Part shown: positions 2,474 to 21,882 of the stretch, piece by piece | Numbering within the stretch: position 1 is the first letter of the stretch | How the letters are laid out: each line of letters starts with the position of its first letter | Assembly: GCA_016235455.1 (NCBI GenBank) | Contig: JACRKZ010000092.1 | Location: 1-21,882 of the forward strand | DNA from: Armatimonadota bacterium | GTDB lineage: Bacteria > Armatimonadota > UBA10988 | Length of the DNA stretch: 21,882 nt | Direction of reading: 5' to 3' | The notes under the pieces: model-generated | What the model saw: only the letters and a program-made list of their open reading frames with translations | Told to the model about the DNA's origin: nothing | The model's database searches: none | Position numbers and translations under genes: made by a program

Positions 2474-2511
2474 CACGCCAATGGACATGCCCCACGAAAG
2501 GAGGGGCCAAG

Positions 2512-4125
2512 ATGCGCTACACACAGCACTACAGCAAGCTGAAGACGTCCCAGGCCAAGCCGCTCGCCGGCCGGGCCATGGTGGCCAACGACGCCGGCGG
2601 TTATGTCTTCGCCGTCAGCGACTGGACGCGCCTGCGGCGCTTCCTGATCCTCGGCAGCGAGGGCGGCACCTACTACGCCGGCGAGCGCGTCGTCACCATC
2701 GACAACGCCAAGGCGGTCGAACGGTGCCTGGCCGCCGACGGCCCGCGTGTGGTCCGCGAGGTGCTCGCGGTCAGCGAGGGCGGATGCGCGCCGCGCAACG
2801 ATCCGGCGCTGTTCGTGCTGGCGCTCTGCACCACCGGCGACGAGGCCACGCGGCGCGAGGCGTTCGCCGTCCTGCCGCGGGTGGCGCGTACCGGCACGCA
2901 CCTGTTCACCTTCGTGACCTACATGAAGGACCTGCGTGGCTGGGGCAAGCTGGCGCACCGTGGCCTGGCCCGGTGGTATGTCGAGCGCGACCTGCACGAC
3001 CTGGAGCTGCAACTGGCCAAGTACCAGGGCCGCTCGCAGGCCGGTGAGCGCTGGACACACCGCGACGTGCTGCGTAAGGCCCGGCCGAAGGTCGAGGCCG
3101 GACCGCGCAACGCCGCGCTGGCCTGGGCCGTGGGCCATGAGGCCGACCTGGACGGTCTGCCGCTGCTGGCCGCCGTCGAGGCGGTGCGGCATGCCGAGCG
3201 CGTGGACGACGTGGTGCGGCTCATCGAGACCGCGCACCTGCCGCGCGAGTGCGTGCCGACGCAGTGGCTGACCGAGCCGGCGGTGTGGCTCGCCCTGCTG
3301 CCGCAGATGCCGCCCATGGCGCTGCTGCGCAACTTGGCCAAGCTGGCCGGGCTGGGCCTGCTGGCTGGCCGGTCCGAGGCCTGCGAATGGGTGGCGAAGC
3401 GGTTCGCGCGCGAGTCGCTGCTCCGCGCGCGGCTGCATCCGCTGGCCATCCTGCTGGGTCTGCGACAGTTCGCCCAGGGCCGGGGCGACAAGGGCCGCCT
3501 GACCTGGCCGGTGGCGCCGCAGGTGGTGGACGTGCTCGGGCAGGCTTTCCACGACGCCTTCGCCGTGGTTGAGCCGACCGGACGGCGACTGCTGCTGGCG
3601 GTCGACTGCTCGGGCTCGATGGACGGCACCTACATCGCGGGCACGTCGCTGTCGGCGCGTGAGGCGGCCGGCGCGCTGGCCATGGTCACGGCGGCTGTGG
3701 AGCCGTCGTGCCAGGTGGTCGGCTTCACCGCGGGGCCGCACCGTGACCGGTACGGGTTCGGCAGCGGCCTGACCGCGCTGGACATCTCGGCCCGGCGGCG
3801 GCTCGACGACGTGCTGCGCGTCATGCGTGGCGTGCCGTTCGGCGGCACCGACTGCGCGCTGCCGATGCTCTGGGCAACCGAGCAGCGGCTGGCGGTCGAT
3901 GCGTTCGTCGTCATCACGGACAACGAGACCTGGGCGGGCAGCATTCACCCGACTCAGGCGTTGGCCGAGTACCGCCAGAAGACGGGCCTGCCCGCCAAGC
4001 TGGCGGTGATGGCGCTGACGTCCACGGGCTACAGCATCGCCGACCCGGACGATGCGGGCCAGATGGACATGGTCGGCTTCGACACCGCCACGCCGACGGT
4101 GCTGGCCGACTTCCTGCGGGGGTGA
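2512..4125 (+). CDS. rsr: Ro60/Rsr ribonucleoprotein (TROVE domain + VWA domain)
   Basis: ATG at 2512 follows AAAGGAGG. TROVE motifs NDAGGYVF, RLRRFLILGSEGGTYY, RTGTHLFTF, KY...WTHRDVLR, MALLRNL and RLHPL. VWA MIDAS DCSGSM, plus GGTDCALPM, ITDNETW and IADPDD...GFD. Confidence 0.95.
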   Translation: MRYTQHYSKLKTSQAKPLAGRAMVANDAGGYVFAVSDWTRLRRFLILGSEGGTYYAGERVVTIDNAKAVERCLAADGPRVVREVLAVSEGGCAPRNDPALFVLALCTTGDEATRREAFAVLPRVARTGTHLFTFVTYMKDLRGWGKLAHRGLARWYVERDLHDLELQLAKYQGRSQAGERWTHRDVLRKARPKVEAGPRNAALAWAVGHEADLDGLPLLAAVEAVRHAERVDDVVRLIETAHLPRECVPTQWLTEPAVWLALLPQMPPMALLRNLAKLAGLGLLAGRSEACEWVAKRFARESLLRARLHPLAILLGLRQFAQGRGDKGRLTWPVAPQVVDVLGQAFHDAFAVVEPTGRRLLLAVDCSGSMDGTYIAGTSLSAREAAGALAMVTAAVEPSCQVVGFTAGPHRDRYGFGSGLTALDISARRRLDDVLRVMRGVPFGGTDCALPMLWATEQRLAVDAFVVITDNETWAGSIHPTQALAEYRQKTGLPAKLAVMALTSTGYSIADPDDAGQMDMVGFDTATPTVLADFLRG

Positions 4126-7406: not shown

Positions 7407-10400
7407 ATGCGCTGTGGATGGATCCTCTTGCCGTTGCTCGTGAGCGCCTGTGCCGGCCAGCCGCCCGCCGACCCCAACGTGGTCACGCTGCCGCCTGGGC
7501 TGACCAGCCTCGGCGAGATCGGCCGCTTCCGCGTGGGCTGGCAGTCCTATGGCCAGCCGGCCGAATACATGCCCGACGGCTGGGTGGGCCACTTCGAGGA
7601 GCGCACCGGCGTCTCGTACAACCTGGGCGACTCGGTGCTCGGGCGCGAAGCCGTGCTGATGCATTCGCCCTGGCGTGTGCCGCCGGGCCGCACCTGCGTC
7701 GAGTTCCGGCTGCGGCTGCCGCGGGCAACGCCCATCACCTTCACTACGGGCATCACCATGAACCCCTACAGCATGGAGCCCGAGCACAGCGATGGCGTGA
7801 CGTTCAGCGCCTACCTGGTCGATGGCGCCGAGAAGCAGTTGTTCCGGGAGCACTACGCCAAGGCTGAGTGGAAGGACCTGACCTTCGACCTGTCGGCCTC
7901 CGCGGGCCGCGACGTGACGCTGCGTCTGCAGGTCGAGCCCGGCCCGGCCAACAGCCCCAGCTTCGACTTCTCCTACTGGAGCCGGCCGGTCATCCAGTGC
8001 GGCACGACCACCGGCCCAGGCGAGGACCGTGTGGCCAGGCTGCTGGCCAAGCCTGCCTATCGCGCGGTGGCTGGCCGGAGCCTGGTGACGTTGGCCAACC
8101 GGCCGGGCGAGGCACAAGGCATCGCTCCGTCCACGTTCCTGCCCGCCGAGACCAGCGTCAGCGCCCAAGGCGGCACGTTCTGGCTCAGGAGCAAGGCCGC
8201 GGACGCGAGTGTGGCCTACATCTGGCAGCCGGCGACCGGCACGCTTGACGACATCACGGCCAAGGTGGACGATGGCACCGAGTTGCATCCCTGCGCCGGT
8301 GGTGGCGTGACCTTTGCCGTCGGCGACAAGCTCGTCTCTGGCCGCGGCGGTCGGTGCACGGCCTCGAGCGTGGACGCGAACGGCCGGACCGTGCGCATCG
8401 AGTGGCAGTATCCCGCCGAGCAGGGCGGCGCCACCGTGGTCTGGACGTTGGGTATCGTCGGCCGCGCACTGACCGTCCGGGCCGAATGCGCCCAGCCCAA
8501 GGTCGCCGGTCTGTCGCTGGGCCAGGTGACCGGCGCGGCGCTACGCCGGCGGCTGGCTGTGCCGTACCTGCTGGGCAACCTGGACTATCTGCCGGCCGAC
8601 GCGCTCTACTCGGGTCGGTACCTGGACTGGACCGTGAGCCATGCGTCCACTTGCCCGCAAGGCGAAGCCAGCTACCACGCCCTGACCGACGGCACGCGCA
8701 ACACGCTGCTGGAGTCGGGTTACGTAACGCTCACGCCGCACGTGGCCGAGGCGTTGCCCAACCTGCCGCATCCCGTCTCGCCCTATGTGGCGTTGCTCGG
8801 CCCGAAGGTCATGCTCGACATCTGGGGCCACCGCGACAACACCTACGCCGGCGATGCCCGGCTGCTGCGCGAGCTCAAGGACAACGGCGTCGACCACGTG
8901 GCTATCATCCAGCACGACTGGCAGCGCTGGGGCTACGACGCCAAGCTGCCCGACCACCTGCCGGCCAACCCGGCCTACGGTGGCGACCCGGCCATGATCG
9001 AGTTCGGCCGGGCGGCGCGTGACTGCGGCTATGTGTGGTCGCTGCACGAAAACTACATCGACCTCTACCCCGACGCACCGTCGTACGATCCGGCCGCGCG
9101 CGTGCTCCAGTCAGATGGCAAGCCGTCGCCGGCCTGGTACAACTCTGGCACGAAGGTGCAGAGCTACGGGCTCAAGAGCAACCGCGCGCTGGGCTATGCC
9201 AAGGCCGTCGCGCCCGAGGCGCATCGGCGCTACGGCACCAACGCCGCCTACCTCGACGTGCACACCTGCGTGCCGCCCTGGCATCAGCTCGACCATGAGG
9301 CGGGTCAGCCACTGGCCGGCATGGCGCTGGCCAAGGTCAAGAACGACACGGCGCTGTTCCAGTTCATGCGTGACTCCCACGAGGGTCCCATGTTCGGCGA
9401 GGGCAACAACCAGTTCTACTGGGCCGGCCGCTGCGACGGCGTGGAGGCGCAGGTGGAAGGCGGCGAGGACCATCGGCCGTTCCTCGACTTCGACCTGCTG
9501 CGGCTGCACCCGCAAATGGTCAACCACGGCATGGGCTACTACGAGCGCTGGTTCCGCCAGGGCTACGACGCGAACTTCGGCCAGAACGTCGGTACGCCGG
9601 TCGATATGGACCGCTACCGCGCGCAGGAAGTGGCCTACGGCCACGCCGGCTTCATCGGCAACGCCCTGACCGGCAACGTCAACCACGTGGTCAAGGAGCA
9701 CCACCTGATGCACGCCGTGCAGGCGCTGTCCGGCACGGCCAAGGTCACGGCCATCGAATACGGCGTCGGCGACCGCTTCGTCGACGCGTCCATCGCCTTG
9801 GCGGTGACCGACACGCGGCGCCAGCGCATCCGCTATCACAGCGGCCTGACGGTGTGGGTCAACTGGGCCGAGCAGCCCTGGACCGTGGACGGCCACACGC
9901 TGCCGCAATGGGGCTGGCGCGCGGCCGGGCCCGGCACCGAGGTGGCCACCGAACTGCGCGACGGCAAGGTGGCCGACACCGCGCTGACGCCCGAATACAC
10001 CTATGTCGACGCGCGCACCTGGTTCCCCGCGCCGTATGTCAACCGGCCGCGCGACATCGAGCCGAAGCTGCGGTCGCTCAAGGATCTGGGCGACGGCCGC
10101 GTGGAGATCACCTATGAGTGGAAGGTCGGCGAGAAGCTGAGCGAGGACTACAACTGCTTCGTGCACTTCAACAACGTCGCGGCCGACCAGTGGGGCGGTG
10201 ACGACATCGTCTTCCAGCACGACCATGCGCTGCCCCGGCCGACCAGCGCCTGGCAGCCCGGCGAGACCATCGTCGACGGGCCGCATATCCTCACCGTGCC
10301 GGCCGGCAAGTACAACAGCTACGACGTGACCATCGGCCTGTGGAAGACCGGTCGCCTGAACCTCAAGGGCATTCGCGCCACGCGCGAGCGCATCCTCATC

Positions 10401-10784
10401 GGCCGGCTCGGCGTGAAGCAGGAGGGCGGCAAGGTGGTCGCCGTGACCAGCCTGCCCGTCACCGCGGCGGACGACGCGATCGGCAAGACGCCGGACTGGG
10501 ACGAGCGCGTCTATCCCGCGGCGACCACGGTCACCTGCGGCGACGTGCGCACCAACGGCTCGGTCAAGCTGGTCAAGGAGTCGGCGCGGCGCTGGGTGGT
10601 CTATCCGTACCCGCGGGACCGGGCTTTCCAGATCGGCCTGAAGGTGGCGCCGACGGCCAAGGTGGCGGCCCTGGCCGCGCTGACTGGCGCGGAGCTCGGC
10701 GCGGTACCGGCCAAGACTGACGGCGGCTGGCTGACGTTCGACGCGGGCAAGGTAGGGGCCGGTCGGTACGTCGTGACGTGGTGA
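7407..10784 (+). CDS. Large secreted/lipoprotein glycoside-hydrolase-like protein (DUF5696/GH101/GH129-like barrel with accessory beta domains)
   Basis: ATG at 7407 with GGAG RBS and lipobox LVSA-C. Central motifs HDWQRWGYD, LHENYIDLYPDA, AYLDVHT and FGEG. N-terminal SDGVTF...WKDLTFDLSASAGRDVTLRL carbohydrate-binding-like domain. C-terminal FVHF...QHDH...WQPGETIVD domain. Family assignment is inferred. Confidence 0.65.
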   Translation: MRCGWILLPLLVSACAGQPPADPNVVTLPPGLTSLGEIGRFRVGWQSYGQPAEYMPDGWVGHFEERTGVSYNLGDSVLGREAVLMHSPWRVPPGRTCVEFRLRLPRATPITFTTGITMNPYSMEPEHSDGVTFSAYLVDGAEKQLFREHYAKAEWKDLTFDLSASAGRDVTLRLQVEPGPANSPSFDFSYWSRPVIQCGTTTGPGEDRVARLLAKPAYRAVAGRSLVTLANRPGEAQGIAPSTFLPAETSVSAQGGTFWLRSKAADASVAYIWQPATGTLDDITAKVDDGTELHPCAGGGVTFAVGDKLVSGRGGRCTASSVDANGRTVRIEWQYPAEQGGATVVWTLGIVGRALTVRAECAQPKVAGLSLGQVTGAALRRRLAVPYLLGNLDYLPADALYSGRYLDWTVSHASTCPQGEASYHALTDGTRNTLLESGYVTLTPHVAEALPNLPHPVSPYVALLGPKVMLDIWGHRDNTYAGDARLLRELKDNGVDHVAIIQHDWQRWGYDAKLPDHLPANPAYGGDPAMIEFGRAARDCGYVWSLHENYIDLYPDAPSYDPAARVLQSDGKPSPAWYNSGTKVQSYGLKSNRALGYAKAVAPEAHRRYGTNAAYLDVHTCVPPWHQLDHEAGQPLAGMALAKVKNDTALFQFMRDSHEGPMFGEGNNQFYWAGRCDGVEAQVEGGEDHRPFLDFDLLRLHPQMVNHGMGYYERWFRQGYDANFGQNVGTPVDMDRYRAQEVAYGHAGFIGNALTGNVNHVVKEHHLMHAVQALSGTAKVTAIEYGVGDRFVDASIALAVTDTRRQRIRYHSGLTVWVNWAEQPWTVDGHTLPQWGWRAAGPGTEVATELRDGKVADTALTPEYTYVDARTWFPAPYVNRPRDIEPKLRSLKDLGDGRVEITYEWKVGEKLSEDYNCFVHFNNVAADQWGGDDIVFQHDHALPRPTSAWQPGETIVDGPHILTVPAGKYNSYDVTIGLWKTGRLNLKGIRATRERILIGRLGVKQEGGKVVAVTSLPVTAADDAIGKTPDWDERVYPAATTVTCGDVRTNGSVKLVKESARRWVVYPYPRDRAFQIGLKVAPTAKVAALAALTGAELGAVPAKTDGGWLTFDAGKVGAGRYVVTW

Positions 10785-10787
10785 TCA

Positions 10788-10867
10788 GCTAACCACGAGA
10801 GGACACAGAGGGCACAGAGATGGTTCTGAACTGGCTCTCTTTGTGTTCTCTGTGTCCTCTTGTGGTT
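10788..10867. repeat. CACAGAG-type inverted repeat element (MITE/REPIN-like) between convergent genes
   Basis: AACCACGAGAGGACACAGAGGGCACAGAGA (10791-10820) and TCTTTGTGTTCTCTGTGTCCTCTTGTGGTT (10838-10867) pair at 26 of 30 positions. TGATCA occurs at 10782-10787 and 10867-10872. Confidence 0.85.
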
Positions 10868-10869
10868 GA

Positions 10870-11532
10870 TCACTTGTCAGGCGCGTCTGCGGCTTCCACG
10901 CGCAGGTCGTCGAGGAACAGCAGGTAGCCGCGCTTGCCGGGGTAGGTGACCGGCATGAAGATGCCGTGGCCCGAGGCCGGTGCCTTGCCGGGCACGCGGA
11001 CCAAGGGGCCGCTACCGAGCCGCGCCAGCACCTCGGTCTGGGCGCCGCCGGACGTGGGCAGCCAGAGCCAAAGCACAGACCAGGCGTCCTCGGCATACTC
11101 GCCCAGCGGCACGGTGTGGGCGAAGTCGCCGCTGATCAGGCTGACGCGCCGGCCGTCGAAAGCGACCGCCGCCGAGCGGTCGCCGGGGTTGGCGCCGCGC
11201 AGCTCGAACCCGAAGCGCACGCTGTCGGCCTTGCCCTGAATGAGGAAGGCCACCGAGAAGGCCAGCCAGCGCTCGGCGACGTTGGGCAGACGCGTGTTGT
11301 AGCCGGCCATGGGCGACTGCTCACCGGTCTGACGGTCGAGCAACAGGCTGCGCTGACCGCTGTGCGCGCGCAGGTTGCTGGTCAGCAGCAGGTCGTCGCC
11401 AGGATCGCCCCAGCCCACCGACCAGCCCTGCGCGGTCTGGCCGGGCAGACGATCCTCGAAGCCCTGGGTCCAAGGCAGTTGCGCCGAGGCGGCCGAGGCC
11501 AGCATCAGTAGCACGATGGCTGCTCGTTGCAC
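10870..11532 (-). CDS. Hypothetical secreted protein (possible lectin/carbohydrate-binding jelly-roll)
   Basis: Signal-like AAIVLLMLASAASA followed by QGFED...AHSGQRSLLL...LFLDDLRV. Start uncertain (GTG at 11532). The ORF-track extension to 11805 runs through repeat DNA. Confidence 0.65.
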   Translation of the reverse strand: MQRAAIVLLMLASAASAQLPWTQGFEDRLPGQTAQGWSVGWGDPGDDLLLTSNLRAHSGQRSLLLDRQTGEQSPMAGYNTRLPNVAERWLAFSVAFLIQGKADSVRFGFELRGANPGDRSAAVAFDGRRVSLISGDFAHTVPLGEYAEDAWSVLWLWLPTSGGAQTEVLARLGSGPLVRVPGKAPASGHGIFMPVTYPGKRGYLLFLDDLRVEAADAPDK

Positions 11533-11759
11533 CGGTTTTGGCCGAATGGCGCTTCCACGACACCGGCAGCCCCCCCTGTAGTCCCCCCGCGAGCGGGGGG
11601 ACGGTGCACTGACACCCTCCCCGCTCGCGGTGAGGGCCGGGGTGGGGGCTGTCCGCGACTCCATCACAACGCGCCCTTCCGCGCCACCAGGCACCGTGTC
11701 TAGCGCTGGCGGCGCCGACCAAGGGTGGGGAAGCGCCATTCGGCCAGAGCCGGCACAAC
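11526..11759. repeat. Composite repeat element: outer inverted pair (GCCGGnTTTGGCCGAATGGCGCTTCC family) enclosing C/G-run REP hairpins
   Basis: Outer arms 11526-11556 and 11729-11759 match at 27 of 31 positions. Inner elements are CCCCCCTGTAGTCCCCCCGCGAGCGGGGGGAC (11571-11602) and CCCTCCCCGCTCGCGGTGAGGGCCGGGGTGGGGG (11615-11648). Confidence 0.82.
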
Positions 11760-11785: not shown

Positions 11786-14700
11786 CTACCAGTACGTGAA
11801 TTCATAGGGATCCGCCAGATTCAGGGTCGTGTCGTAGAAGGAGGGCCCACGTGCCTCTTGCGAGGCCAGCCGCGTCGGGTCCCAGCCGGCGCGCGACAGG
11901 TTGGCCCAGAAGCCAAAGCCCTTGCCGCCCGAGCCGACCTTGAGCGTGATGATGTTATCGCCGGCGCGCAGGTCGACGTCCACCTGATGCCGGTTGGCCC
12001 GCGGCGAGCCGTGGCCGGTGGTCACTTCGTAGACCGGCTGGCCATTGACCCAGGCTGCCAGCCAGTAGTCCACGCCCAGCCGCAGTCGCGCCTTTCGCGC
12101 CTGGTCGGCCTTCACGTGGCAGACCGCGAAGCTGGTCGACGACAGCTTGCCACCGAGGTCGACGAAGCCATGCTCGTCGGCCTGGGCCACGTGCCAGGTC
12201 GGGCCGTTGCGACCGGCGACGGCGTCGGCCTGTTCGGGAATCACAGCGCCGATCAGGCTGGGTCCGTCGTCCTTGGCCTGAGCGAACGGGCCGAGCACCT
12301 GCCAGCGGGTCAGCTCGTCGTAGCCGGCGCCGGCTTGGAGGGTGCACAGGCGCTGCGCGACCTCGGGCGCGAGTCGCGCGCCGGCGTTGGTGCCGATCTG
12401 TGCGGCCAGCGTCGCGAGCCGCGCGCGGCTCAGCCGAATTGCATCTCGGCGCGCGGCGTCGTCCACGTAGCGGGGGGCGAGCAGCGCCGGATCGGCGGCC
12501 AGCCACACGTCATTCCCGCGCACCAGCGCCAGCCCGCCCAGCAGAACCGTGCTGCCCGCCGGCTGCCCGGTCGGGTCGTAGGCCGGTGTGCGGAGCCCAT
12601 CACGCCAGCGCAGCAGGCTGGTGTCAACCCCGCGCAGCAAGGGATGGCCGTCGAGCGGCACGCGCCATAGCTCGCGCTCGGACAGCTTGAGGCCGCCCGC
12701 GGCCGCGGCCGGATGCACCGTGTAGGCCGGCGTCGGCGCCAGGGCGCGCTGGCACTCCGCCAGCAGGTTGGCCGCCAGTCGCGTGGCGCCAGGGTCGACG
12801 CCCACGCGGTCGGTCAGGTCCAGCGAGCAGCAGGTGATACGCCCCTTGCCATGCCGCAGATGCAGCAGCGGCGTGTAGGCCAGGTCGAACTCGCAGGACA
12901 ACACCGGCGTGAAGCCCACCACCTGCGGGATCTCGAACACCGTCGAGGCCACCGCGCCGGTGTTGGTCCAGCGCGGCGCGCGCGGCCCGTCGTAGTCGCG
13001 GGCCATCTTCCCTTCGGGCAGCAGGTCGGGCGAGCCGCGCCAGTTGATCAGGTCCTCGGGCGCGATGCCGGCCAGGATCGGGCTCTGGGCATCGCGCGCA
13101 AAGACATAGCGCGTCATCGTCTCGACGTTGCGGAAGCCCAGCCCTTCCCAGATCTCGGGCTTCTGCTCCAGGATCAGCACACGGTGGCCGGCCTGGATGT
13201 CCGCGCTGGTATACGGCAGCGCCATGCCCGGCTCGAGCGCCTCGCGGCCGATGACCAGCAGGCTGTCGGCCGGCCTGGGCTGGCCCGGCTGCCACAGCGT
13301 CGGCCGGATGCCCAGCGCCTCGATCCAGGCGCGTGAGCGGCCGCGGGGGTCCCACAGCGCGACCTTGCCCGCCGGCTGGGGCAGCAGGCGCGGATGGATC
13401 TGGACGGGCAGCGTGTCCGTCGCGACGACCTTGCCGCCGTCTTCGACCCTCAACTCCAGCCGCGCGGCCAGACGCTGCGCCGCGGCTGGCGCGGTGACCG
13501 CGAAGGGCAGGAGCTTGATGTCGCCGGCGGAGACATCGATGGCCAGTTGACCGTTCCCGAGGGTCTTGTCGCCCGCGACCAGCGACCAGCGCGCCGTCAG
13601 GCGGCGCCGGCCGGGCCCGTCCCAGACCACCGCCACCTGCTTGTCGATGCGCTCGCCTGACCAGTAGGCGTGCGACTTGTCGGTGAACTTGGGCGCGCCG
13701 GCCAGGTAGGCCAGCAGCGGCTGGTTGTCGGGCGCATAGATATCGAAGTTGGCGTTGGCCCAGTCGGGCCGCCTGGTCACGGGCTCACGGAGTGCGGCGT
13801 AGCGGTTGAACACATTGCCCGCGTAGCCCGGCGGGTCGCCGTAGCCGAGGCCGAAGTTCCACCACTGCCAGCCGCCATTGACGCCCCAGGTGCGCCAGGC
13901 GCGCGTGGTGTTGCGCACGAACAGCCGCTGGAACTCCCAGTAGCCGGGCCACTGCTTGAGATCCACCTTGTCGAACGCGCCGTGGCCACTTACGTTGGCC
14001 AGGCTAAGCTCGATGATCTTCTTCTGGCCTGCCTCGCTCTCCCAGGCATAGGCCTGCGGGCCGAAGTACATGGCCAGATACTCGGTCAGCAGGAACTGCT
14101 TGCCCTTCCAGAAGTTGGCCGTATACGGCTCGCCAAACTCAACCGCGGAGTAGGGCATGTTGCCCGACGCGGCCCACCGCGACGGCCAGTCCTCGCGCTC
14201 TTGCAGCGGCACGAAATTGAGGTACGAGTTGGCCGTGGACAGATCGCCCGTGCTGCCGTCGGCATGGGAGAAGGCCAGCCGCGTCGGGTCGTGCTGCCGC
14301 GTCACCCGACAGGCGTACTCGATGGCGCGCGCGTTCCCGTTCTTGTCTTCCGCCGGCCGATGACCCATGCCGTCGGCGTGGATGTTGGTCCGCGGGCAAT
14401 AGGTGTTCATGCCCACGGCATAGGCGAAGACGCTCGGATGGTTGCGCACGAAACGCAGATGGTAGGCCATCTCGCGGTCGTAGTCGGCCTGGAGCTGCTT
14501 GTCGGTCAGCAGGCTGGGCTTGAGATTGCTCATGCCGGGCACGGGCAGCGTGGCGCCGCAGCCGTTCTCGTCGAGCGCCGCCAGCGTGGCCTCGTCGAAG
14601 ATCGGCGTCTCCGACCAGTTGCCCCACCAGGCGCTGGGGTTGGGCTGCCACTGGAAGACGTTGAAGCCAAGCAGCCGGAAGAACGACAGCGAGGTCGGCG

Positions 14701-15646
14701 TCAGCCCCGAGTTGGCCCAGGTCAGCCGCCAGCGCATGTCGTGGCCGTTGAGCAGCAGACGACGGCCCTCGGTCCACACCTCGCGGAAGCCGAACCTCAC
14801 CGGCTCGGCCTGGTCGGCCACCTGGCCACGCAGCGATGCCGTGCAGCTATACAGGTACGGCGCCTCCAGCTCCCACAGCCGGACGTCGGGCCAGGCTTTG
14901 GTCAGCCGATGGGTCGAACGGCCCGCGGGCAGGGCGACAGCCGGCAGGTCGAGCGCCAGCGCCGGCTGGCCGGCGGTCTGCGTGATGTCGGCATGGAGCG
15001 CCGCCTGCGTGGCCGCGGTCGCCTCGACCTCCACCTGCACGGTCAGCTCGTGCTTCCGCTGTGAGGGGATGACGAAGACGTCTGTGATCGCCGCCGCCTT
15101 GGGCCGCGCGCGGATCGTCACCGGCGCGGTGATGCCCAACGGCCACTGGTCGGGCGTGAGCTTGTCATGCCGTGTCAGGTAGCGCAGCGGGTCGTGCGCG
15201 AAGTCGCGCGAGATGCCCGTGTAGTCGCGTGTCAGGAACACCGTCAACCGGTTCTCACCAGCCTTGACCGCGGTATCGAGAGCCACCTCGCCGCCGGGCC
15301 GCAGCAACTCGCCGAGTCGCTGGCCGTTGAGGAAGACGACGGCATCGCCCTCGATGCGGCGGAAGTCGGCCACGACGTGCCGGCCCTGCGGGTCGGCGAG
15401 CGTGGTGAAGACCTGCTCGTACCACAGCGAGTGCACCTGGCCGCGCGGCGTCTTGGCCCAGGCCTGGCCGGGCGCCGTGGGTGCGGTGCCGCGCCAGTCG
15501 CGCGCGGGCATGGTGCCCCAGGCGTCCGGTTGGGGCGGCGTGTCCGGCGACACCGCGACCTGCACCCGCCAGACCTCGGCCAGGGCCAGGTTCCAGCGCG
15601 GCGGCGCGTCGGTCGCGAGCAATGCGGTCAGCAGCAGGGGGATCAT
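11786..15646 (-). CDS. Glycoside hydrolase family 2-like multidomain secreted protein
   Basis: ATG at 15646 with GGGAG RBS and signal-like MIPLLLTALLA. GH2 hallmarks AVVFLNGQRLG, GITAPV, RLWELEAPYLY, RFGFREVWTEGRRLLLNG, RNHPSV, HDPTR and EFG. C-terminal domain with WVNG...GDNIITLKV. Confidence 0.85.
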   Translation of the reverse strand: MIPLLLTALLATDAPPRWNLALAEVWRVQVAVSPDTPPQPDAWGTMPARDWRGTAPTAPGQAWAKTPRGQVHSLWYEQVFTTLADPQGRHVVADFRRIEGDAVVFLNGQRLGELLRPGGEVALDTAVKAGENRLTVFLTRDYTGISRDFAHDPLRYLTRHDKLTPDQWPLGITAPVTIRARPKAAAITDVFVIPSQRKHELTVQVEVEATAATQAALHADITQTAGQPALALDLPAVALPAGRSTHRLTKAWPDVRLWELEAPYLYSCTASLRGQVADQAEPVRFGFREVWTEGRRLLLNGHDMRWRLTWANSGLTPTSLSFFRLLGFNVFQWQPNPSAWWGNWSETPIFDEATLAALDENGCGATLPVPGMSNLKPSLLTDKQLQADYDREMAYHLRFVRNHPSVFAYAVGMNTYCPRTNIHADGMGHRPAEDKNGNARAIEYACRVTRQHDPTRLAFSHADGSTGDLSTANSYLNFVPLQEREDWPSRWAASGNMPYSAVEFGEPYTANFWKGKQFLLTEYLAMYFGPQAYAWESEAGQKKIIELSLANVSGHGAFDKVDLKQWPGYWEFQRLFVRNTTRAWRTWGVNGGWQWWNFGLGYGDPPGYAGNVFNRYAALREPVTRRPDWANANFDIYAPDNQPLLAYLAGAPKFTDKSHAYWSGERIDKQVAVVWDGPGRRRLTARWSLVAGDKTLGNGQLAIDVSAGDIKLLPFAVTAPAAAQRLAARLELRVEDGGKVVATDTLPVQIHPRLLPQPAGKVALWDPRGRSRAWIEALGIRPTLWQPGQPRPADSLLVIGREALEPGMALPYTSADIQAGHRVLILEQKPEIWEGLGFRNVETMTRYVFARDAQSPILAGIAPEDLINWRGSPDLLPEGKMARDYDGPRAPRWTNTGAVASTVFEIPQVVGFTPVLSCEFDLAYTPLLHLRHGKGRITCCSLDLTDRVGVDPGATRLAANLLAECQRALAPTPAYTVHPAAAAGGLKLSERELWRVPLDGHPLLRGVDTSLLRWRDGLRTPAYDPTGQPAGSTVLLGGLALVRGNDVWLAADPALLAPRYVDDAARRDAIRLSRARLATLAAQIGTNAGARLAPEVAQRLCTLQAGAGYDELTRWQVLGPFAQAKDDGPSLIGAVIPEQADAVAGRNGPTWHVAQADEHGFVDLGGKLSSTSFAVCHVKADQARKARLRLGVDYWLAAWVNGQPVYEVTTGHGSPRANRHQVDVDLRAGDNIITLKVGSGGKGFGFWANLSRAGWDPTRLASQEARGPSFYDTTLNLADPYEFTYW

Positions 15647-15665
15647 CGACGGCTCCCGGCTCACT

Positions 15666-15694
15666 AGGATGGCCGATGCGCGCGACGGTGTCCA
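15666..15694 (-). promoter_or_regulatory. Possible sigma70 promoter of the GH2-like gene
   Basis: Minus strand TGGACA-N17-CATCCT, ending about 20 nt before the ATG. Confidence 0.35.
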
Positions 15695-15740
15695 GCGGGG
15701 GCGCGGCGCAGTACACTGAGCGCCAGAGCGCAAGATGCTG

Positions 15741-16011
15741 GTTGTACCGGCTTGGGCCGAAGGGCGCTTCCACTCGGCGGTGGCAGTCTCCCGCGCCGAT
15801 GACCGGCAACGCTGACGCCGGTACGCTGAGCCAGCAGAGCTGGCTGCATCTCCAGATTGGCAGTGGTCCGCAGGACCATCGTTGGCCACCGGTCCGCCGC
15901 GATGTCGATCTGCGGCTACGCCTCCGGCCGATGCCAATCTGGAGATTGGCGTACCGGCACGGGCGGCACTGACCGGACAATGGAAGCGCCATTCGGCCAA
16001 AGCCGGCACAA
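15741..16011. repeat. Second copy of the composite repeat element, with different nested REP cargo
   Basis: Outer arms GTTGTACCGGCTTGGGCCGAAGGGCGCTTCCA (15741-15772) and TGGAAGCGCCATTCGGCCAAAGCCGGCACAA (15981-16011). Inner inverted pairs GCCGGTACGC (15817-15826)/GCGTACCGGC (15949-15958) and ATCTCCAGATTGGCA (15848-15862)/TGCCAATCTGGAGAT (15932-15946). Confidence 0.85.
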
Positions 16012-16042
16012 AGAACATGATCTGCTGCGACGGGTGGCCTGC

Positions 16043-17662
16043 ATGGCGGAGCGAGACCAGTGGGTGGCGGAGTTCCTGGCGCATATCGCGGCGCTCGACC
16101 TGCCACGTCACCACTACATCCGCCTGCCCGACCGCGACCTGCTGCTCACCGCCGACCTGCGCGGCATCCTGCGCGCCGAACTGGACACCTGGCTGGCGCG
16201 CCGACTGCTCGACCTGGACACCGCCGACGCGCTGGATCTGGCGCGTGCCGTGCGCGAGGCCGCACGCGCCGCGGTCGAGCCGCTGGCCGAGGCGGAGGAG
16301 GCCCGCATCGCCCGCTGGCAGGCGCCGCGCGCGGCCGTCGAGGAGTTCTGGTGTGTCACGCTCGACCGCGTGCCCGAGTCGTTGCACGCCGAGATCGCCG
16401 GCAACGCCGCGCAGCGCCAGGCCTGGGCCGCGCTGTATGGCGACGATCGGCTCAACCTGCACGCCATGGTCGATACGCGACTGTTCGGCGCTGAGTTCAC
16501 GCAGCGGCTGCTGACCACGCTCGGTGATGCGCCGCCCGACGGTACCGTCTATCACGGCGACAACCACGACGCGCTGGCGCACCTGGCCGGTGAGCTGGCC
16601 GGGCGCGTGCGCTGCATCTACCTCGACCCGCCCTACAACACGGGCAACGAGGCCTTCACCTACCGCGACAGCTACCAGCGCACGGTCTGGCGGACGATGA
16701 TGACCGAGCGCCTGACCGCCGCGCGCGAGATGCTGGCCACGGACGGCGCGGTGTTCGTGAGCATCGACAACAACGAGCAGGCCCGGCTGCGGCTGCTCAT
16801 GGACGAGGTGTTTGGCGAGCGCAACTTCGTCGAGACGTTCCTCTGGACCCGCACCAAGACGCCGCCCGCGCTGGCCGCCAAGTCGCGCAAGACCGTCGAG
16901 TTCGTGCACTGCTACGAGCGGCGCCTGTCGTCGACGCCGTACCGCGGCCGACCGCTGGACAACGGCGACGCGCCGCTGCTCAACACAGGCAACCGCGAGC
17001 GCGAGCTGACCTTCCCCGCCGGCAGCATCCTCACGTCGCTGCCCGACGGCGAGTATGCGCCCGGCCCGCGGGGCAAGGTGGAACTGCTGACCGCCGCGAC
17101 AGTGGCCGACGGCCGGATCGTCAATGCCATCACGGTGCGCGGCCCGTTCAAGTGGCAGCAGTCGTTCCTCGATGCCGAGCTGGCCGGCGGCACGACGCTG
17201 CTGGTGCGCACGGCGGCCTTCTCGATGCGTTTCCAACGGCCCGACCGCGGCCGCTGCAAGCCGCCCGGCAACCAGCTCGACGCCGACCTGCCCAGCGACG
17301 TGGGCACCAACGAATCAGCCTCGGCCGAGCTGCGCGCCATGGGCTTGAGCGGCTTCTCGTACCCCAAGCCGGTGTCGCTGGTGGCCGCGCTGGTGCGTAT
17401 GAACACTGGCGCGGGCGACATCGTGCTCGACTTTTTCGCCGGCTCGGGCACCACCGGCGCGGCGGTGCTCGCGCTCAACCGCGCCGACGGGCTGGGCCGG
17501 CGCTATGTGCTGGCCGAGCTGGGCGACCATGTCGACACCGTGCTGCTGCCGCGGCTGATCAAAGCCGTCTACGCCGCGGAGTGGCGCGACGGCCGGCCGC
17601 TGCCGGGCACGGGCGTCAGCCATGTGTTGCGCGTGGTGCGGCTGGCGCGGTTCGAGGAGTGA
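16043..17662 (+). CDS. Site-specific DNA amino-methyltransferase, beta class, type III R-M Mod-like; no res gene adjacent
   Basis: YHGDN, CIYLDPPYNTG (DPPY at 16625-16636), FVSIDNNE, LLMDEVFGERNF, a target-recognition region, FSYPKP and VLDFFAGSGTTG (from 17429). The catalytic motif precedes the SAM-binding motif. Start uncertain. Confidence 0.9.
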   Translation: MAERDQWVAEFLAHIAALDLPRHHYIRLPDRDLLLTADLRGILRAELDTWLARRLLDLDTADALDLARAVREAARAAVEPLAEAEEARIARWQAPRAAVEEFWCVTLDRVPESLHAEIAGNAAQRQAWAALYGDDRLNLHAMVDTRLFGAEFTQRLLTTLGDAPPDGTVYHGDNHDALAHLAGELAGRVRCIYLDPPYNTGNEAFTYRDSYQRTVWRTMMTERLTAAREMLATDGAVFVSIDNNEQARLRLLMDEVFGERNFVETFLWTRTKTPPALAAKSRKTVEFVHCYERRLSSTPYRGRPLDNGDAPLLNTGNRERELTFPAGSILTSLPDGEYAPGPRGKVELLTAATVADGRIVNAITVRGPFKWQQSFLDAELAGGTTLLVRTAAFSMRFQRPDRGRCKPPGNQLDADLPSDVGTNESASAELRAMGLSGFSYPKPVSLVAALVRMNTGAGDIVLDFFAGSGTTGAAVLALNRADGLGRRYVLAELGDHVDTVLLPRLIKAVYAAEWRDGRPLPGTGVSHVLRVVRLARFEE

Positions 17663-17707
17663 TTGGCGTCAGCGCGCGACGGGTAGACTCTGGGGCAGGG
17701 GACAGCC

Positions 17708-18604
17708 ATGGACTACCGGCAGGTGCGTGACCTCCACGTGCGCCAGCGACCCCGTCTGGACCGCGTGGGCTGCGTCGCGGGGCTGCTGTTCCCGCTGGCG
17801 TGCCTGGCTCATGTGTGGTGGGTCACGCCGCCGACGCCGCGCGTGCCCGTGATGTGGGGCGAGAACGGCGCGGTGTGCGTGACGCGGCCCGCCCAGGACG
17901 ACATTCAGCGCTTCCGCGTAGGCCCCCGCGAACCACATCGCTGGCGGCGGTTCGGCGTCGCGCTGGTCGGCTATGACTGGGGCGAGCGCCAAGCGGTCAT
18001 CGTCAGTGCCGACGGCAGGCGGCGCACGGTGCGCACGGGCGATCTCCGCAGCGTCGACAGCGCTTACCCCTTCGCGGATGGCGCCATCGTCAACAGCAAC
18101 GATGACCAGACCTACTTCGCGCGCGACGGCGCCGCCCGCCGCATCGCGGATGTACGTTGCGTGCAGCCCGAGCCGGGCGGCCAACGCTGGGCCGCCGAGC
18201 GACCCAACGAAACCATCGAGGTCTGCTCTGGCCCGCTCGATGCGCCGACCGCGCGCCGGCCAGTGTATCGCGTGGTCGGCGCGCGGAGTTGGCTCTACGA
18301 CTGGCGCCACAATGAGCTGGTCTGGTCCGACTACCAGGGACTCTGGTCCGCCCGCCAACCCAACCAGCCGCCGAAGTTGCGCGCCAGGCTCAGCCAGGCT
18401 CCGTTGGAGCTGGGTACCGACCCGCACACGGGCGACCTGCTAGTGACGTTGGACGCCATCGTCCGCGGCTGGATGGTCTCGGTGCCCCACGGCCAGATCC
18501 AGCCGCGCTGGCGTCAGCGCTGCTACCGGACGGCGACGCCGTTGGGGGAATGGCGGCCGGAGGATGAGCGGATGTTAGGGGCGCTCACGCTCCAGGGGCC
18601 ATAG
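17708..18604 (+). CDS. Hypothetical protein with one N-terminal hydrophobic segment and a beta-rich remainder
   Basis: ATG follows GGGGA. Hydrophobic stretch VGCVAGLLFPLACLAHVWWV. The ORF fills the gap between co-oriented genes. No family recognised. Confidence 0.6.
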   Translation: MDYRQVRDLHVRQRPRLDRVGCVAGLLFPLACLAHVWWVTPPTPRVPVMWGENGAVCVTRPAQDDIQRFRVGPREPHRWRRFGVALVGYDWGERQAVIVSADGRRRTVRTGDLRSVDSAYPFADGAIVNSNDDQTYFARDGAARRIADVRCVQPEPGGQRWAAERPNETIEVCSGPLDAPTARRPVYRVVGARSWLYDWRHNELVWSDYQGLWSARQPNQPPKLRARLSQAPLELGTDPHTGDLLVTLDAIVRGWMVSVPHGQIQPRWRQRCYRTATPLGEWRPEDERMLGALTLQGP

Positions 18605-18648
18605 GCGCGGCTCGCGATCGCCGGTGACCACACGCTGAGCAAATCTGC

Positions 18649-18677
18649 TTGACAATGCCTCTGCGTCTCAGTAGAGT
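18649..18677 (+). promoter_or_regulatory. sigma70-type promoter for the SIR2-TPR/SLATT pair
   Basis: TTGACA (18649-18654), 17-nt spacer, TAGAGT (18672-18677), ending about 20 nt before the GTG start. Confidence 0.75.
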
Positions 18678-18697
18678 CCCGCGCACAGCGGGGGGAC

Positions 18698-20740
18698 GTG
18701 GTGCCAGAGCAGGGGATCAACCGACTGACGGATGAGCAGTTCGCGGGCCGGCTGCGCCGGGAGGTGAAGCGGGTGCCCACGCGCGACGCCGCCTGCGTGC
18801 TGATCCTGGGCGCCGGCTTCTCCTATGGCTTGGTGCCCACGGTGCGGGCCATGGTGCGCGACATCGTCTGGTGGGAGCGCTGCCAGGACGATCCGTCGTT
18901 GAACTACGAGCGCGAACCCGCCGGGCCAGCCAACTGGTACCGCGAGCGGCTGGCCGAAGTGCGCGGCGAGCACGAGGCGGCGAAGTTCGACCCCGGCAGC
19001 GGCCAGTTCGACCCGACGCTGGTCTACCTGACGCTGATGGACCCGGCTGGGCAGGTGCTGTTCAGCGCCGACCTGCGCGCGCGCTACCTGCACGCGGTCA
19101 TCGCCAAGGCGGGCAACCGGCTCAACGACGCCCACATGTTCCTCGCCGGCCTGCTGGCCGAACAGGCGGCCTGGCCGGGCGAGCGGCTGCCGTTCTGCCG
19201 CACCATCCTGACCACCAACTTCGACTGGTTCCTCCAGTACGCGCTGCAACTCACGCAGACGCTCTACTTCATGTCCGACCAACCTGGCGCCATCGACCCG
19301 CTCACGGCCGGCCTCGGCTCGGCCATCCATCTGGTGCAGGCGCATGGCTCGGCGCACCACTACCGCCTGTGCAACAACGACAACGAGATCGAGCGCGCCA
19401 AAGCCGCGGCGGCCGGGATGGTGCCGTACCTGCAGGAGCACATGGTCGTGGTCATCGGCTACAGCGGTTGGAACGACGCGATCATGGCGGCGCTGGAGAG
19501 CGTGCCGCAGTTCCGGCATGGGCTGTACTGGTGTGACATCGTGGAGCCGGGCGACCTGGGCGAGCGGGCGCGAGCACTGCTGGCCCGGCACGCTGATGCG
19601 CACTACGTGAAGTGCCAGGGTGCTGATGCCCTGATGCGCCGTGTGTATGAGGCGGCGGCCGGCAAGTCGCGGGGTAGCGTGCCCGAGTTCATCCGGCAGC
19701 CCCTGAAGGGCCTGGGCGGCCGGTACGCGGCGTGCGCGGAGTCGACCCAGCCCTTCGGTGGTCTGCAAGCCTGGTTGGAGCGGTTGGTGCCCGAGTTGGT
19801 GGAGGCGCAGGCGCACATCGATCGGGCGCTCAAATCACCCGAGAACGCGCTCTTGAGCAAGAGCTACGTGCTGTTCGACTCAAATGACTGGGACGCCGCG
19901 ATCCACGCGCTGACGACGCTGGTCGACCAGCACGAGTTGTCGCCTGAGCTGGCGGCGCGCGCCCGGCTTGGTCGGGCAGTCAGCTACGGTGAGCGCAAGC
20001 GAGTCGGCGACTCGGCGCTGGCGGTGGCCGACTACTCCGCAGTCGTGGCCATGGCCGACGCGCCTGCAGAGCAGCGCGCCAAGGCGCTGTTCAACCGTGG
20101 GCTCAGCTACGGCCAGAGCGGCGACTGGGCGCTCGCGGCGGCGGACTACACGGCCGTGGCCGAGATGACGGACGCGCCGGTTGAGCTGAGGGCCAAGTCG
20201 CTGGTCAACCGCGGGTTCCGCCACGGCCAGCAGGGCGACTGGGCGCTTGCTGTGGCGGACTACACGACGGTGATCGAGATGGCCGACGCGCCGGTCGAGC
20301 AGAAGGCGAAGGCGCTGGTCAATCGCGGCTTCCGCTACGGCCAGCGCGGCGAGTCGGGCGACTGGCAGCGGTCGGTGGCAGACTACACTGCGGTGGCGGA
20401 GATGGCTGACGCGCCGGTCGAGCAGAAGGCCAAGGCGCTGTTCAATCGCGGATTCCGCTATGGCCAGCGCGGCCAGCCGGGCGACTCGGCGCGCGAGGTG
20501 GCCGACTGCACGGCCGTGGCGCAGATGGCCGACGCGCCGGCCAAGCAGAAGGGCAAGGCGCTGTTCAACCTCGCCTGCGTGTCCGCCCTTGCCGGTGATG
20601 TGGCTGGTTGCGTCGAGCACCTGGCTCGGTCGCATGAGGTCGTGCCGCTCACCAAGGCTGACGTCGACGGCGACCACGACTTCGACGTCATCCGCAGTGA
20701 CCCAGCCTTCATGGCATTCCGCGGCGGATTGGCCGAGTAG
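18698..20740 (+). CDS. SIR2-like (SIR2_2) NADase domain fused to a TPR repeat array
   Basis: SIR2 motifs LILGAGFS (GAGFS at 18809-18823), ILTTNFD (TTNFD at 19211-19225), VQAHGS (HG at 19343-19348) and VVIGYSGWND. These are followed by 38/41-aa TPRs and a terminal FNLAC...DHDFDVIRSDPAF capping repeat. Confidence 0.88.
   Translation: MVPEQGINRLTDEQFAGRLRREVKRVPTRDAACVLILGAGFSYGLVPTVRAMVRDIVWWERCQDDPSLNYEREPAGPANWYRERLAEVRGEHEAAKFDPGSGQFDPTLVYLTLMDPAGQVLFSADLRARYLHAVIAKAGNRLNDAHMFLAGLLAEQAAWPGERLPFCRTILTTNFDWFLQYALQLTQTLYFMSDQPGAIDPLTAGLGSAIHLVQAHGSAHHYRLCNNDNEIERAKAAAAGMVPYLQEHMVVVIGYSGWNDAIMAALESVPQFRHGLYWCDIVEPGDLGERARALLARHADAHYVKCQGADALMRRVYEAAAGKSRGSVPEFIRQPLKGLGGRYAACAESTQPFGGLQAWLERLVPELVEAQAHIDRALKSPENALLSKSYVLFDSNDWDAAIHALTTLVDQHELSPELAARARLGRAVSYGERKRVGDSALAVADYSAVVAMADAPAEQRAKALFNRGLSYGQSGDWALAAADYTAVAEMTDAPVELRAKSLVNRGFRHGQQGDWALAVADYTTVIEMADAPVEQKAKALVNRGFRYGQRGESGDWQRSVADYTAVAEMADAPVEQKAKALFNRGFRYGQRGQPGDSAREVADCTAVAQMADAPAKQKGKALFNLACVSALAGDVAGCVEHLARSHEVVPLTKADVDGDHDFDVIRSDPAFMAFRGGLAE
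20075..20548 (+). repeat. Intragenic tandem TPR-coding repeats (114, 114, 123, 123 bp)
   Basis: Units start at 20075, 20189, 20303 and 20426. Consensus (R/K)AKAL(F/V)NRGFRYGQ..GDW....ADYTAVAEMADAPVEQ, with similarity visible at DNA level (GACGCGCCGGTCGAGCAGAAGGC recurs). Confidence 0.92.
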
Positions 20741-20789
20741 CCGGTGCGCCAATCGGCCGCCGTGCGGCCATAGGAGAAGCGAGGGGAAG

Positions 20790-21521
20790 ATGGCAATGAA
20801 CGCACTGGACACAGACACCAATCAGGATGCCAACGCGCAACCTGACGGCCTGCGCACGCACCGGACCGCCGACGCCGACCTTTCATCGTTGGAGTTCGGC
20901 GAACTGGACTGGAGCGACCCCGATCGTTGGCTGGAGATGCTGCGCGCTGTGCACGACGAGGTGTGCGCCAACGCTAACGAGACCGTGGCGTGGTACAGCC
21001 GGGCCAAGGCCAAGAAGAAGCCGAGGGCTGCTGGCGCACGCGGGCTCGCGCTGGCCACGGCGCTGATCACCGCTGGGCTCGCGGTCGCAGCGCAATTCGG
21101 GTTCAAACAGCCTGGGTGGACCGCGCTCTTCCTGTTCCTGGCGACCGCCTTCATCCTCACCGACAGCGTCGCTGGTTGGACGCAAGGCTACCTGCGCTCA
21201 ACAAAGACGCGGGAGAGGATCCAAGGGCTGTTGGCCGCCTTCCAGGGCGACTGGGAGCTGTCGATTTTGGCGGCCGTCGCCGCGCCTGACAGCGGCGGGC
21301 AACCAACCCTTGAGCAAGTCCAGGCGCTGCTGAAGCTGGCCTGCGACTTCCGCAAAGCGATGCAGACGGCCATCAGCGAAGAGACCCAGGAGTGGGCCAA
21401 CGACTTCAAGGCCGGCCTGGACCAAGTGGACGCCTTGCTGGGTAAGCAACGGAACCAAGCGGCCGGCTCGCCCGCCGCTGGTGCCGCGCCGGCACCTCCG
21501 GCAGGCGGCCGCAAGCCCTGA
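20790..21521 (+). CDS. SLATT domain (SMODS/SLOG-associating 2TM effector) protein
   Basis: ETVAWYSRAKAKKK, then two hydrophobic helices (GLALATALITAGLAVAA; WTALFLFLATAFILTD), then GWTQGYLR and a helical tail with EETQEWANDF. This matches the SLATT pattern as I recall it. ATG at 20790 follows GAGGGGA. Confidence 0.8.
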   Translation: MAMNALDTDTNQDANAQPDGLRTHRTADADLSSLEFGELDWSDPDRWLEMLRAVHDEVCANANETVAWYSRAKAKKKPRAAGARGLALATALITAGLAVAAQFGFKQPGWTALFLFLATAFILTDSVAGWTQGYLRSTKTRERIQGLLAAFQGDWELSILAAVAAPDSGGQPTLEQVQALLKLACDFRKAMQTAISEETQEWANDFKAGLDQVDALLGKQRNQAAGSPAAGAAPAPPAGGRKP

Positions 21522-21527
21522 CGCCCC

Positions 21528-21882
21528 CTACGGCCCCAACGGCACCTGCACGTTGTACGAATGCTCGCGGCGGCTGCTCTCGTCCACCGCGCAGTACAGC
21601 GTCGTCGGCACACCGCCTTCAAACAGCAACTGCGGCCGCTCCAGCGAATGGAGCGGCTGCACGCTTCCGTCGGGCCGCTTGACCCCGATTGTGCTGACCA
21701 GCGGGTGCTCGGCCAGCTTCCAGTCGATGCCGTCGCGCGATTCGAACAGCGCCAGCGACTTGCCCGCGTGGGTGAAGTGGCCTTCGTTGTCCTTCACCAC
21801 CGCCCAGTAGCGGTCGGGGCCGAACCAGATGAAGGGGTCTTCTGCGGGGAACATGACGCCCGCGGCGGTGAACACGGGGCGC
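21528..21882 (-). CDS. C-terminal part of a five-bladed beta-propeller glycoside hydrolase-like protein (GH43/GH117-like); 5' end outside the window
   Basis: Motifs AEDPFIW, YWAVVKD, LFESRDGIDW and LERPQLLFEGGVPTTLYCA. The frame is open to the window edge. Confidence 0.75.
   Translation of the reverse strand, partial: RPVFTAAGVMFPAEDPFIWFGPDRYWAVVKDNEGHFTHAGKSLALFESRDGIDWKLAEHPLVSTIGVKRPDGSVQPLHSLERPQLLFEGGVPTTLYCAVDESSRREHSYNVQVPLGP

Follow-up and report, generated by a model that had tools for sequence, protein, structure and literature searches.

The window analysed here is a 21,882-nt stretch of DNA from an Armatimonadota bacterium (assembly GCA_016235455.1, contig JACRKZ010000092.1, forward strand). 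Near its 3' end, two adjacent plus-strand genes encode a protein in which a SIR2 domain is fused to a tetratricopeptide repeat (TPR) array and, 49 nt downstream, a small membrane protein of the SLATT_2 family (Table 1). The SIR2-TPR protein is probably an autonomous sensor of the DSR type that hydrolyses nicotinamide adenine dinucleotide (NAD+), that is, a sensor-NADase. We give a little less than an even chance to the fuller proposal, in which this autonomous NADase and a lineage-specific, co-transcribed SLATT protein, acting downstream as a second effector, together form two layers of one response; a two-gene SIR2-TPR/SLATT system is thus plausible rather than demonstrated. The initial annotation of this stretch had proposed an undescribed two-gene defence operon. 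Its domain calls were confirmed and no other partner domain was found in the window, whereas a conserved two-gene system was not recovered in the wider family.

The SIR2-TPR protein resembles defence NADases

Since long spurious open reading frames (ORFs) are common at the GC content of the window (~70%), coding frames were judged by third-position GC, and the values for the SIR2-TPR and SLATT genes (Table 1) support both as coding. An alternative GTG start of the SIR2-TPR gene, at 18701, would give a protein of 679 aa. The GAG, TTNFD, HG and GYS motifs, which had been described as intact, are all present, as GAGFS, TTNFD, HGS and GYSGW. In an alignment of 21 family members, in which residue numbers equal the ORF numbering minus one, T171 to D175 (TTNFD), H215, G216 and S217 were invariant in all 21 proteins, as were G253, Y254, G256, W257 and D259 (GY.GW.D) and the WC of the LYWC motif. 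The Asn of TTNFD and the His of HG are the residues that we take to be catalytic, from earlier work on ThsA and DSR2.

A profile built from the family alignment matched the Sir2 chain of SPARSA complexes (8in8_B and 8jkz_A, 1.5e-9). In addition, among the defence models of PADLOC-DB 2.0.0, the SIR2 domain matched Aga_SIR2, a model associated with prokaryotic Argonaute (pAgo), at 3.7e-15 and PDC-S65 at 6e-14; each match covers only ~150–195 residues and therefore indicates likeness at the level of the domain and no membership of a named system. The AlphaFold2 model of the protein (mean predicted local distance difference test score, pLDDT, 87.4) has an alpha/beta SIR2 domain to residue ~322, followed by a helical linker that runs directly into a solenoid of helical repeats, the TPRs, with no domain between. 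When this model was searched with Foldseek, the matches included consensus TPR proteins, the SPARSA Sir2 chain 8y80_E (1.1e-7), whole DSR2 chains (8wya_E, 9.0e-6; 8w56_B, 2.7e-5) and the KomBC complex (9v0g_E, 9.4e-6). By analogy with these proteins, the SIR2 domain is predicted to be a defence-type NADase that hydrolyses NAD+.

The fusion of the SIR2 domain to a TPR array, also part of the initial annotation, was supported by a Pfam TPR_2 match (3.5e-12), by five repeats and by an NCBIfam end cap. At the DNA level the array consists of a 114-nt unit in 4.8 copies with 79% matches, so that the repeats are highly alike, and comparison of the family alignment with consensus TPR proteins showed that each repeat is a TPR with a 4-residue insertion. 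Relatives differ widely in repeat number, and are between 624 and 1010 aa long. Furthermore, three proteins (P0017, P0024 and P0025) carry the same 38-aa repeat type, 42–47% identical over the array, on AAA_16/NACHT-type ATPase domains and not on SIR2, which suggests that one sensor module has been swapped between effectors. By analogy, the array may sense a phage protein.

Taken together, the invariant motifs, the kinship with SPARSA and pAgo-associated SIR2 domains, the fold match to DSR2, the variable repeats, their occurrence on ATPases and the rarity and scatter of the family (described below) argue for a NADase sensor. We propose that the N-terminal SIR2 NADase would be kept inactive and controlled by the C-terminal TPR superhelix. 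A phage-derived ligand bound in the TPR groove might then release or oligomerise the SIR2 domain, by analogy with DSR2 and the SIR2 of SPARSA, and the activated domain would split NAD+ into ADP-ribose and nicotinamide, by which the infection would be aborted.

A SLATT gene that may be coupled to the SIR2-TPR gene

The downstream gene matches SLATT_2 well above the curated cut-offs of both Pfam (PF18183; 3.7e-15, 56.7 bits against 25) and NCBIfam (1.7e-24, 86.5 bits against 40), in agreement with the family assigned to it in the initial annotation. It is intact, and its product keeps the family-invariant residues R136 and W202 as well as 12 near-invariant positions. The AlphaFold2 model (pLDDT 86.7) consists of four long helices; a Foldseek search of this model against the PDB returned nothing at E ≤ 0.001, merely generic long helical bundles. 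No SLOG or Macro domain was found alongside SLATT_2. The protein begins with a disordered acidic tail, and a tail of comparable acidity was present in none of 148 distant SLATT relatives and in one close relative, P0039, where it comprises 92 residues with a net charge of -7. This tail is only a lead, as a candidate docking peptide for the TPR groove.

P0039 is the closest relative of the SLATT protein (51% identity, on a contig of 1174 nt) and the sole one above 50%, the others lying at ~30%. There were 607 representatives at E ≤ 0.001 and two at E ≤ 1e-30. The 150 nearest representatives all match SLATT_2, and no enzymatic domain recurred among them; a single ferredoxin-fold anticodon-binding domain was seen, and the other single matches were weak. 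In tblastn searches, neither plasmids nor phages matched the SLATT protein, no phage matched the SIR2 half of its neighbour, and the whole SIR2-TPR protein gave only TPR-only matches, in four plasmids.

The two genes lie on the same strand, and the spacer between them holds a purine-rich ribosome-binding stretch directly 5' of the SLATT ATG; within it, neither a promoter-like nor a terminator-like site was called. A promoter-like site, the near-consensus promoter of the initial annotation, ends 21 nt 5' of the GTG start of the SIR2-TPR gene; we class it as promoter-like from its consensus match, and no second one occurs in 15500–21882, where 50 shuffles gave 0.3 ± 0.7 sites. At the other end, the stops of the SLATT gene and the convergent ORF are 6 nt apart (21522–21530), which leaves no space for a terminator. 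The long ORFs of the window (18 scanned with Pfam and 16 with PADLOC) contained no STAND NTPase, TIR, HerA, cyclase, reverse transcriptase or Argonaute, as had been stated earlier for the first four of these.

In the available parts of the literature, SLATT proteins are effectors that act downstream of an enzyme. Type VII Thoeris combines the TIR protein ThsB with the SLATT protein ThsH, the signal being cyclic ADP-ribose (cADPR), and the same source describes a SIR2 effector in type I Thoeris, a type VIII effector, ThsI, whose TPR domain is presumed to be its cADPR sensor, and rare operons in which ThsH and ThsI occur together (10.64898/2025.12.03.692087). As far as their accessible text goes, TIR and SLATT are also paired in Shaseng (10.1101/2024.12.27.630466) and in Firmicute phages (PMC9503650), a reverse transcriptase and SLATT form DRT10 (10.64898/2026.04.29.721553), and in GTPase-centred systems SLATT genes are added where nucleotide-processing effectors occur (PMC7159879).

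The shared strand, the 49-nt gap, which holds a ribosome-binding stretch but neither a promoter-like nor a terminator-like site, the conserved residues and confident fold of the SLATT protein, the acidic tail specific to it and P0039, the lack of any other signal-making enzyme in the window and the precedents of type VII Thoeris, Shaseng and DRT10, as far as these are described in the text available, together speak for a coupling of the two genes. The SLATT_2 gene may have been recruited downstream of the SIR2-TPR gene in this lineage, probably onto the same transcript, and its product would then act under the control of the SIR2-TPR protein as a second effector, one that damages the membrane. 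Its trigger could be a product of NAD+ cleavage, as cADPR is for ThsH in type VII Thoeris, or direct contact, with the unusual acidic tail of SLATT and the groove of the TPR array as candidate interfaces.

Related loci and the weight against coupling

To find relatives we searched one genome per species (185,579 species) with the patterns [FL]TTNFDx[LF]LQ and [IL]V[IMV]GY[SG]GWxD. The search matched 134 stretches, of which 108 were confirmed, so that the family is rare, and its members are scattered over several phyla. We retained 79 loci, each extended by up to 8 kb in both directions; these come from genomes other than that of the window and belong mainly to Planctomycetota, Acidobacteriota and Verrucomicrobiota, with best-segment identities of 25–51% (28–41% where the SIR2 domain was matched). 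In the first 64 loci, at least 1 kb of sequence was available downstream in 51 and upstream in 60.

Several results weigh against the proposed coupling, or against a defence role of the SIR2-TPR protein itself. The linkage in other genomes expected of a two-gene operon was not seen, as SLATT was present at 0 of the 79 loci. A tblastn search of these loci with the SLATT protein, the orphan ORF and the methyltransferase of the window (Table 1) gave nothing at E ≤ 0.01. A SLATT profile made from the 150 closest representatives, which recovered the window protein as a control at 5e-57, had no match at E ≤ 10 among the 5350 six-frame ORFs of the loci. Pfam searches found no SLATT, TIR or cyclase in 113 immediate neighbours (loci L001–L064) or in 40 neighbours with hydrophobic segments two or three genes away. 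No neighbour family was common to more than three loci when genes up to three positions away were compared all against all at the 79 loci. A gene of at least 600 aa was present at 49 loci, 42 of them with at least 1 kb downstream, and at these the next gene was on the same strand in 21 cases and on the opposite strand in 21. The pair is thus a singleton so far, and the SIR2-TPR gene stands alone across the wider family. In the tree of SIR2 domains the window protein is nested within the family, as sister to P0004 (46% identical to it, from a metagenome contig) and L001, with L016 next. Since the SIR2-TPR genes of L001 and L016 both run off the ends of their contigs, the subclade of the window itself (L001, L016 and P0004) lies outside this result.

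The match to Pfam SIR2_2 (PF13289) passed its cut-off only marginally (24.9 bits against 24.5). The immediate neighbours of the relatives were mostly housekeeping genes, and a specific PADLOC candidate (E ≤ 1e-12) was an immediate neighbour at only ~4 of 64 loci, namely SNc+LTD in L011, PDC-S01 with an HmaB-like methylase in L036 (4368–5642 and 8203–10710; a single case), PDC-M41B/M30B in L037 and PDC-S02 in L055. Matches in two further loci (L044 and L053) were generic, and those in L020 and L024 were to the SIR2 half of a split gene. Support from defence islands is therefore weak, and a conflict role is argued for by the relatedness of the SIR2 domain, by an array that varies in repeat number and by the sporadic occurrence of the family. 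In our judgement, however, the PADLOC catalogue is thin for Planctomycetota, Acidobacteriota and Verrucomicrobiota.

Some individual loci showed further features. In L020 (6618–10286) and L024 (6509–9959), the SIR2 and TPR parts lie in two consecutive or overlapping ORFs, the gene being split or frameshifted. In L002 (10100–12262) and L003 (10481–12676), the gene 3' of the SIR2-TPR gene, which it overlaps by 4 nt in L002, encodes a protein of ~720 aa that has twelve hydrophobic segments and matches nothing in Pfam; these two loci also share their upstream gene, so the neighbour may simply reflect the synteny of related genomes. Near the SIR2-TPR gene, L008 encodes a nicotinamide mononucleotide transporter (12031–12792, minus strand; a single case). 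L047 encodes a ParA-like ATPase whose C-terminal part has two hydrophobic helices (10315–11586, minus strand), for which the PCTM systems may be compared, as described in the accessible text of 10.64898/2026.10.19.760177.

Alternative explanations

The main alternative to the coupled pair is that two independent modules lie side by side, the SIR2-TPR gene being a complete single-gene system. The SLATT gene would then be the leftover of a system that has lost its signal-maker, such as TIR-SLATT or reverse transcriptase-SLATT, or would respond to a factor encoded elsewhere. The solitary SIR2-TPR gene at all 79 related loci, with no conserved neighbour, fits this explanation, and so does the sparse lineage of its own to which the SLATT protein belongs. 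The lower third-position GC of the SLATT gene (0.81 against 0.90) likewise hints at a separate history. Against it stand an intact SLATT gene that retains every family-conserved residue, lacks a separate promoter-like site and follows the SIR2-TPR gene at 49 nt, and the cases described in the literature available, in none of which a lone SLATT is a complete system. We consider independence somewhat less likely than coupling.

Within the coupled reading, the initial annotation had allowed for a signalling route, in which the SIR2 domain would make an ADP-ribose-type signal that gates the SLATT pore. In its fullest form, the SIR2 domain would do more than drain NAD+: once the TPR array has sensed a phage, ADP-ribose or one of its derivatives would open the pore, and the acidic tail may in addition dock in the TPR groove to give one membrane-bound unit. 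This version, which would amount to Thoeris-like signalling with a sirtuin-fold enzyme in the place of a TIR, seems to us quite unlikely. We know of no SIR2 enzyme that makes a signalling molecule, a further point on the negative side.

A role outside immunity was also considered, in which a TPR scaffold would carry an NAD-dependent enzyme with a regulatory or protein-modifying function, and the membrane protein encoded downstream would be unrelated to it. The predominance of housekeeping genes next to the relatives and the few PADLOC candidates there would suit such a role, but the closest kin of the SIR2 domain are defence NADases rather than deacetylase sirtuins, the family is sporadic in distribution and variable in repeat number, and SLATT_2 is described solely as an effector of conflict systems in the portions of the literature that we found. 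We hold this explanation to be improbable. That both proteins respond in parallel, as effectors, to a diffusible signal from an enzyme encoded elsewhere, with the TPR array as receptor, mirrors the TPR domain of ThsI as presumed cADPR receptor, the rare ThsH/ThsI operons and the SIR2 effector of type I Thoeris in the accessible text of 10.64898/2025.12.03.692087, but seems highly improbable; a signal-dependent effector family would be expected beside its signal maker, and no TIR or cyclase occurs in the window or among the 153 scanned neighbours of relatives.

Comparison with known systems

The SIR2-TPR protein resembles DSR2 in being a single polypeptide, in model and by Foldseek, with an N-terminal SIR2 NADase and then a long helical-repeat C-terminal sensor, and also in that its family has no conserved partner gene. 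It differs from DSR2 in size (680 aa against ~1000) and in its regular array of 38-aa TPRs with an end cap; whole-chain TM-scores against its model are low (0.27), and no DSR model is among the eight PADLOC families that match it at E ≤ 0.01. The trigger of DSR2 is a tail tube protein, as far as the titles of PDB entries state. The SIR2-APAZ protein of SPARSA provides the closest SIR2 domain by sequence, by fold and by PADLOC model (Aga_SIR2). Unlike SPARSA and short pAgo systems, the window has no APAZ domain and no Argonaute gene, and the C-terminus of the SIR2-TPR protein is a TPR array. The likeness to PDC-S65 is one of SIR2 domains and is limited to residues 167–318 of the protein against positions 139–288 of a 592-position model.

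The arrangement of the pair resembles type VII Thoeris and Shaseng, in which, in the text available, the gene of an NAD+-consuming enzyme adjoins that of a SLATT-only effector with no SLOG or Macro sensor. Their enzyme is a TIR whereas here it is a SIR2, and the likeness to ThsH is one of description. Thoeris of any type differs further in having a TIR signal generator (ThsB), which was absent from the scanned ORFs of the window, and SIR2-HerA, Avs5 (SIR2-STAND) and CBASS differ in their HerA helicase, STAND NTPase and CD-NTase, respectively, none of which occurs in the window. The SIR2-SLATT pairing has been seen once, whereas TIR-SLATT was seen 84 times in one cluster, according to the accessible part of 10.64898/2025.12.03.692087. 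That the pairing corresponds to no named system agrees with our results, since PADLOC gave partial matches to the SIR2 domain only and no description of a SIR2-SLATT pair was found in the available literature on SLATT with SIR2 or NADases, a body of text that leaves aside the supplementary tables of TIR neighbourhoods. Furthermore, a full-text search found no paper containing the name 'SIR2-TPR' or 'PDC-S65'.

Neighbouring genes and other features of the window

The pair ends a plus-strand block of ~5.5 kb, with four consecutive genes (15857–21521) and minus-strand genes on both sides. The first gene of the block encodes a methyltransferase of the Mod type, whose coding signal in the frame plot runs from ~16040 onward; no Res subunit for it was found anywhere in the window. 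The second is an orphan ORF with a basic N-terminus and then a hydrophobic stretch at residues 19–41, an N-terminal anchor. It has no Pfam, PADLOC or NCBIfam match and no homologue in the protein collection searched, and we treat it as context of the pair rather than as a demonstrated member. With no family match and no homologue, we favour neither a hidden TIR nor a restriction enzyme partnering the methyltransferase, and the hydrophobic anchor speaks further against a cytoplasmic nuclease. ARAGORN called a tRNA-Ser(gct) inside this ORF (17750–17840, plus strand), which would have hinted at an island integration site; Rfam gave no tRNA there even at E ≤ 10, and the call was taken as a false positive.

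Farther upstream, a tRNA-like element of 123 nt (2277–2399, plus strand) was recognised by Rfam as a tRNA (47.3 bits) and gave no ARAGORN call. Its acceptor, D and T arms are intact, and a 65-nt insert stands in place of the anticodon arm; we take it to resemble a YrlA-type bacterial Y RNA. The element lies 62 nt 5' of an Rsr/Ro60 gene (2461–4125) with an NCBIfam Rsr match (4e-140, under the curated cut-off) and Pfam TROVE and Ro60 vWA matches. A PRC-barrel protein encoded at 1251–2138 on the minus strand resembles subunit H of the photosynthetic reaction centre at a level below threshold (NCBIfam puhA, 2.5e-18; 66.5 bits, where the cut-off is 200).

Table 1. Coordinates of the SIR2-TPR and SLATT genes, their domains and motifs, and the features flanking them
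Feature	Position	Strand	Details
SIR2-TPR gene, 680 aa	18698–20740	+	GTG start, TAG stop; third-position GC 0.90
SIR2 (PF13289-type) NAD-binding domain	18779–19663	+	residues ~28–322
GAGFS motif	18809–18823	+	residues 38–42
TTNFD motif	19211–19225	+	residues 172–176 (ORF numbering)
AHGS motif	19340–19351	+	residues 215–218; HGS at 216–218 (ORF numbering)
GYSGWND motif	19457–19477	+	residues 254–260
LYWC motif	19523–19534	+	within the SIR2 domain
TPR-type array, five repeats	19940–20557	+	38–41 aa each; pattern DYTAV..M.DAP.EQ.AKAL.NRG
TPR end-of-group cap	20558–20716	+	residues 621–673; NCBIfam NF047558, 5e-10, 39.2 bits (cut-off 32)
Intergenic spacer, 49 nt	20741–20789	+	ribosome-binding stretch GGAGAAGCGAGGGGAAG
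SLATT_2 gene, 243 aa	20790–21521	+	ATG start, TGA stop; third-position GC 0.81
Disordered acidic N-terminal tail of SLATT	20790–20918	+	43 residues, net charge -8, pLDDT ~50
Two adjacent transmembrane helices of SLATT	21042–21179	+	residues ~85–105 and ~110–130 (hydropathy); model helices 44–101 and 108–128
Promoter-like site	18649–18677	+	TTGACA (18649–18654), 17-nt spacer, TAGAGT (18672–18677); 10/12 consensus positions
Type III-like (Mod-type) DNA methyltransferase	15857–17662	+	Pfam N6_N4_Mtase 9e-28; PADLOC MTase_III 5.9e-60
Orphan ORF, 298 aa	17708–18604	+	third-position GC 0.87, coding-like
Glycosyl hydrolase family 2-like gene	11786 to ~15500	-	upstream flank of the plus-strand block
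Convergent ORF	21528–21881	-	downstream flank of the SLATT gene

Implications

If the two genes are not coupled, the SIR2-TPR proteins would still constitute an uncharacterised single-gene family that has no full-length match among PADLOC models, an ordinary addition to the DSR-type class, found in phyla whose defence repertoires are poorly catalogued (Planctomycetota, Acidobacteriota and Verrucomicrobiota). If they are coupled, this would be the first case found, in the literature accessible, of a SIR2 enzyme feeding a SLATT effector in place of a TIR, a cyclase or a reverse transcriptase, and NAD-derived immune signalling would be extended to a second enzyme fold.

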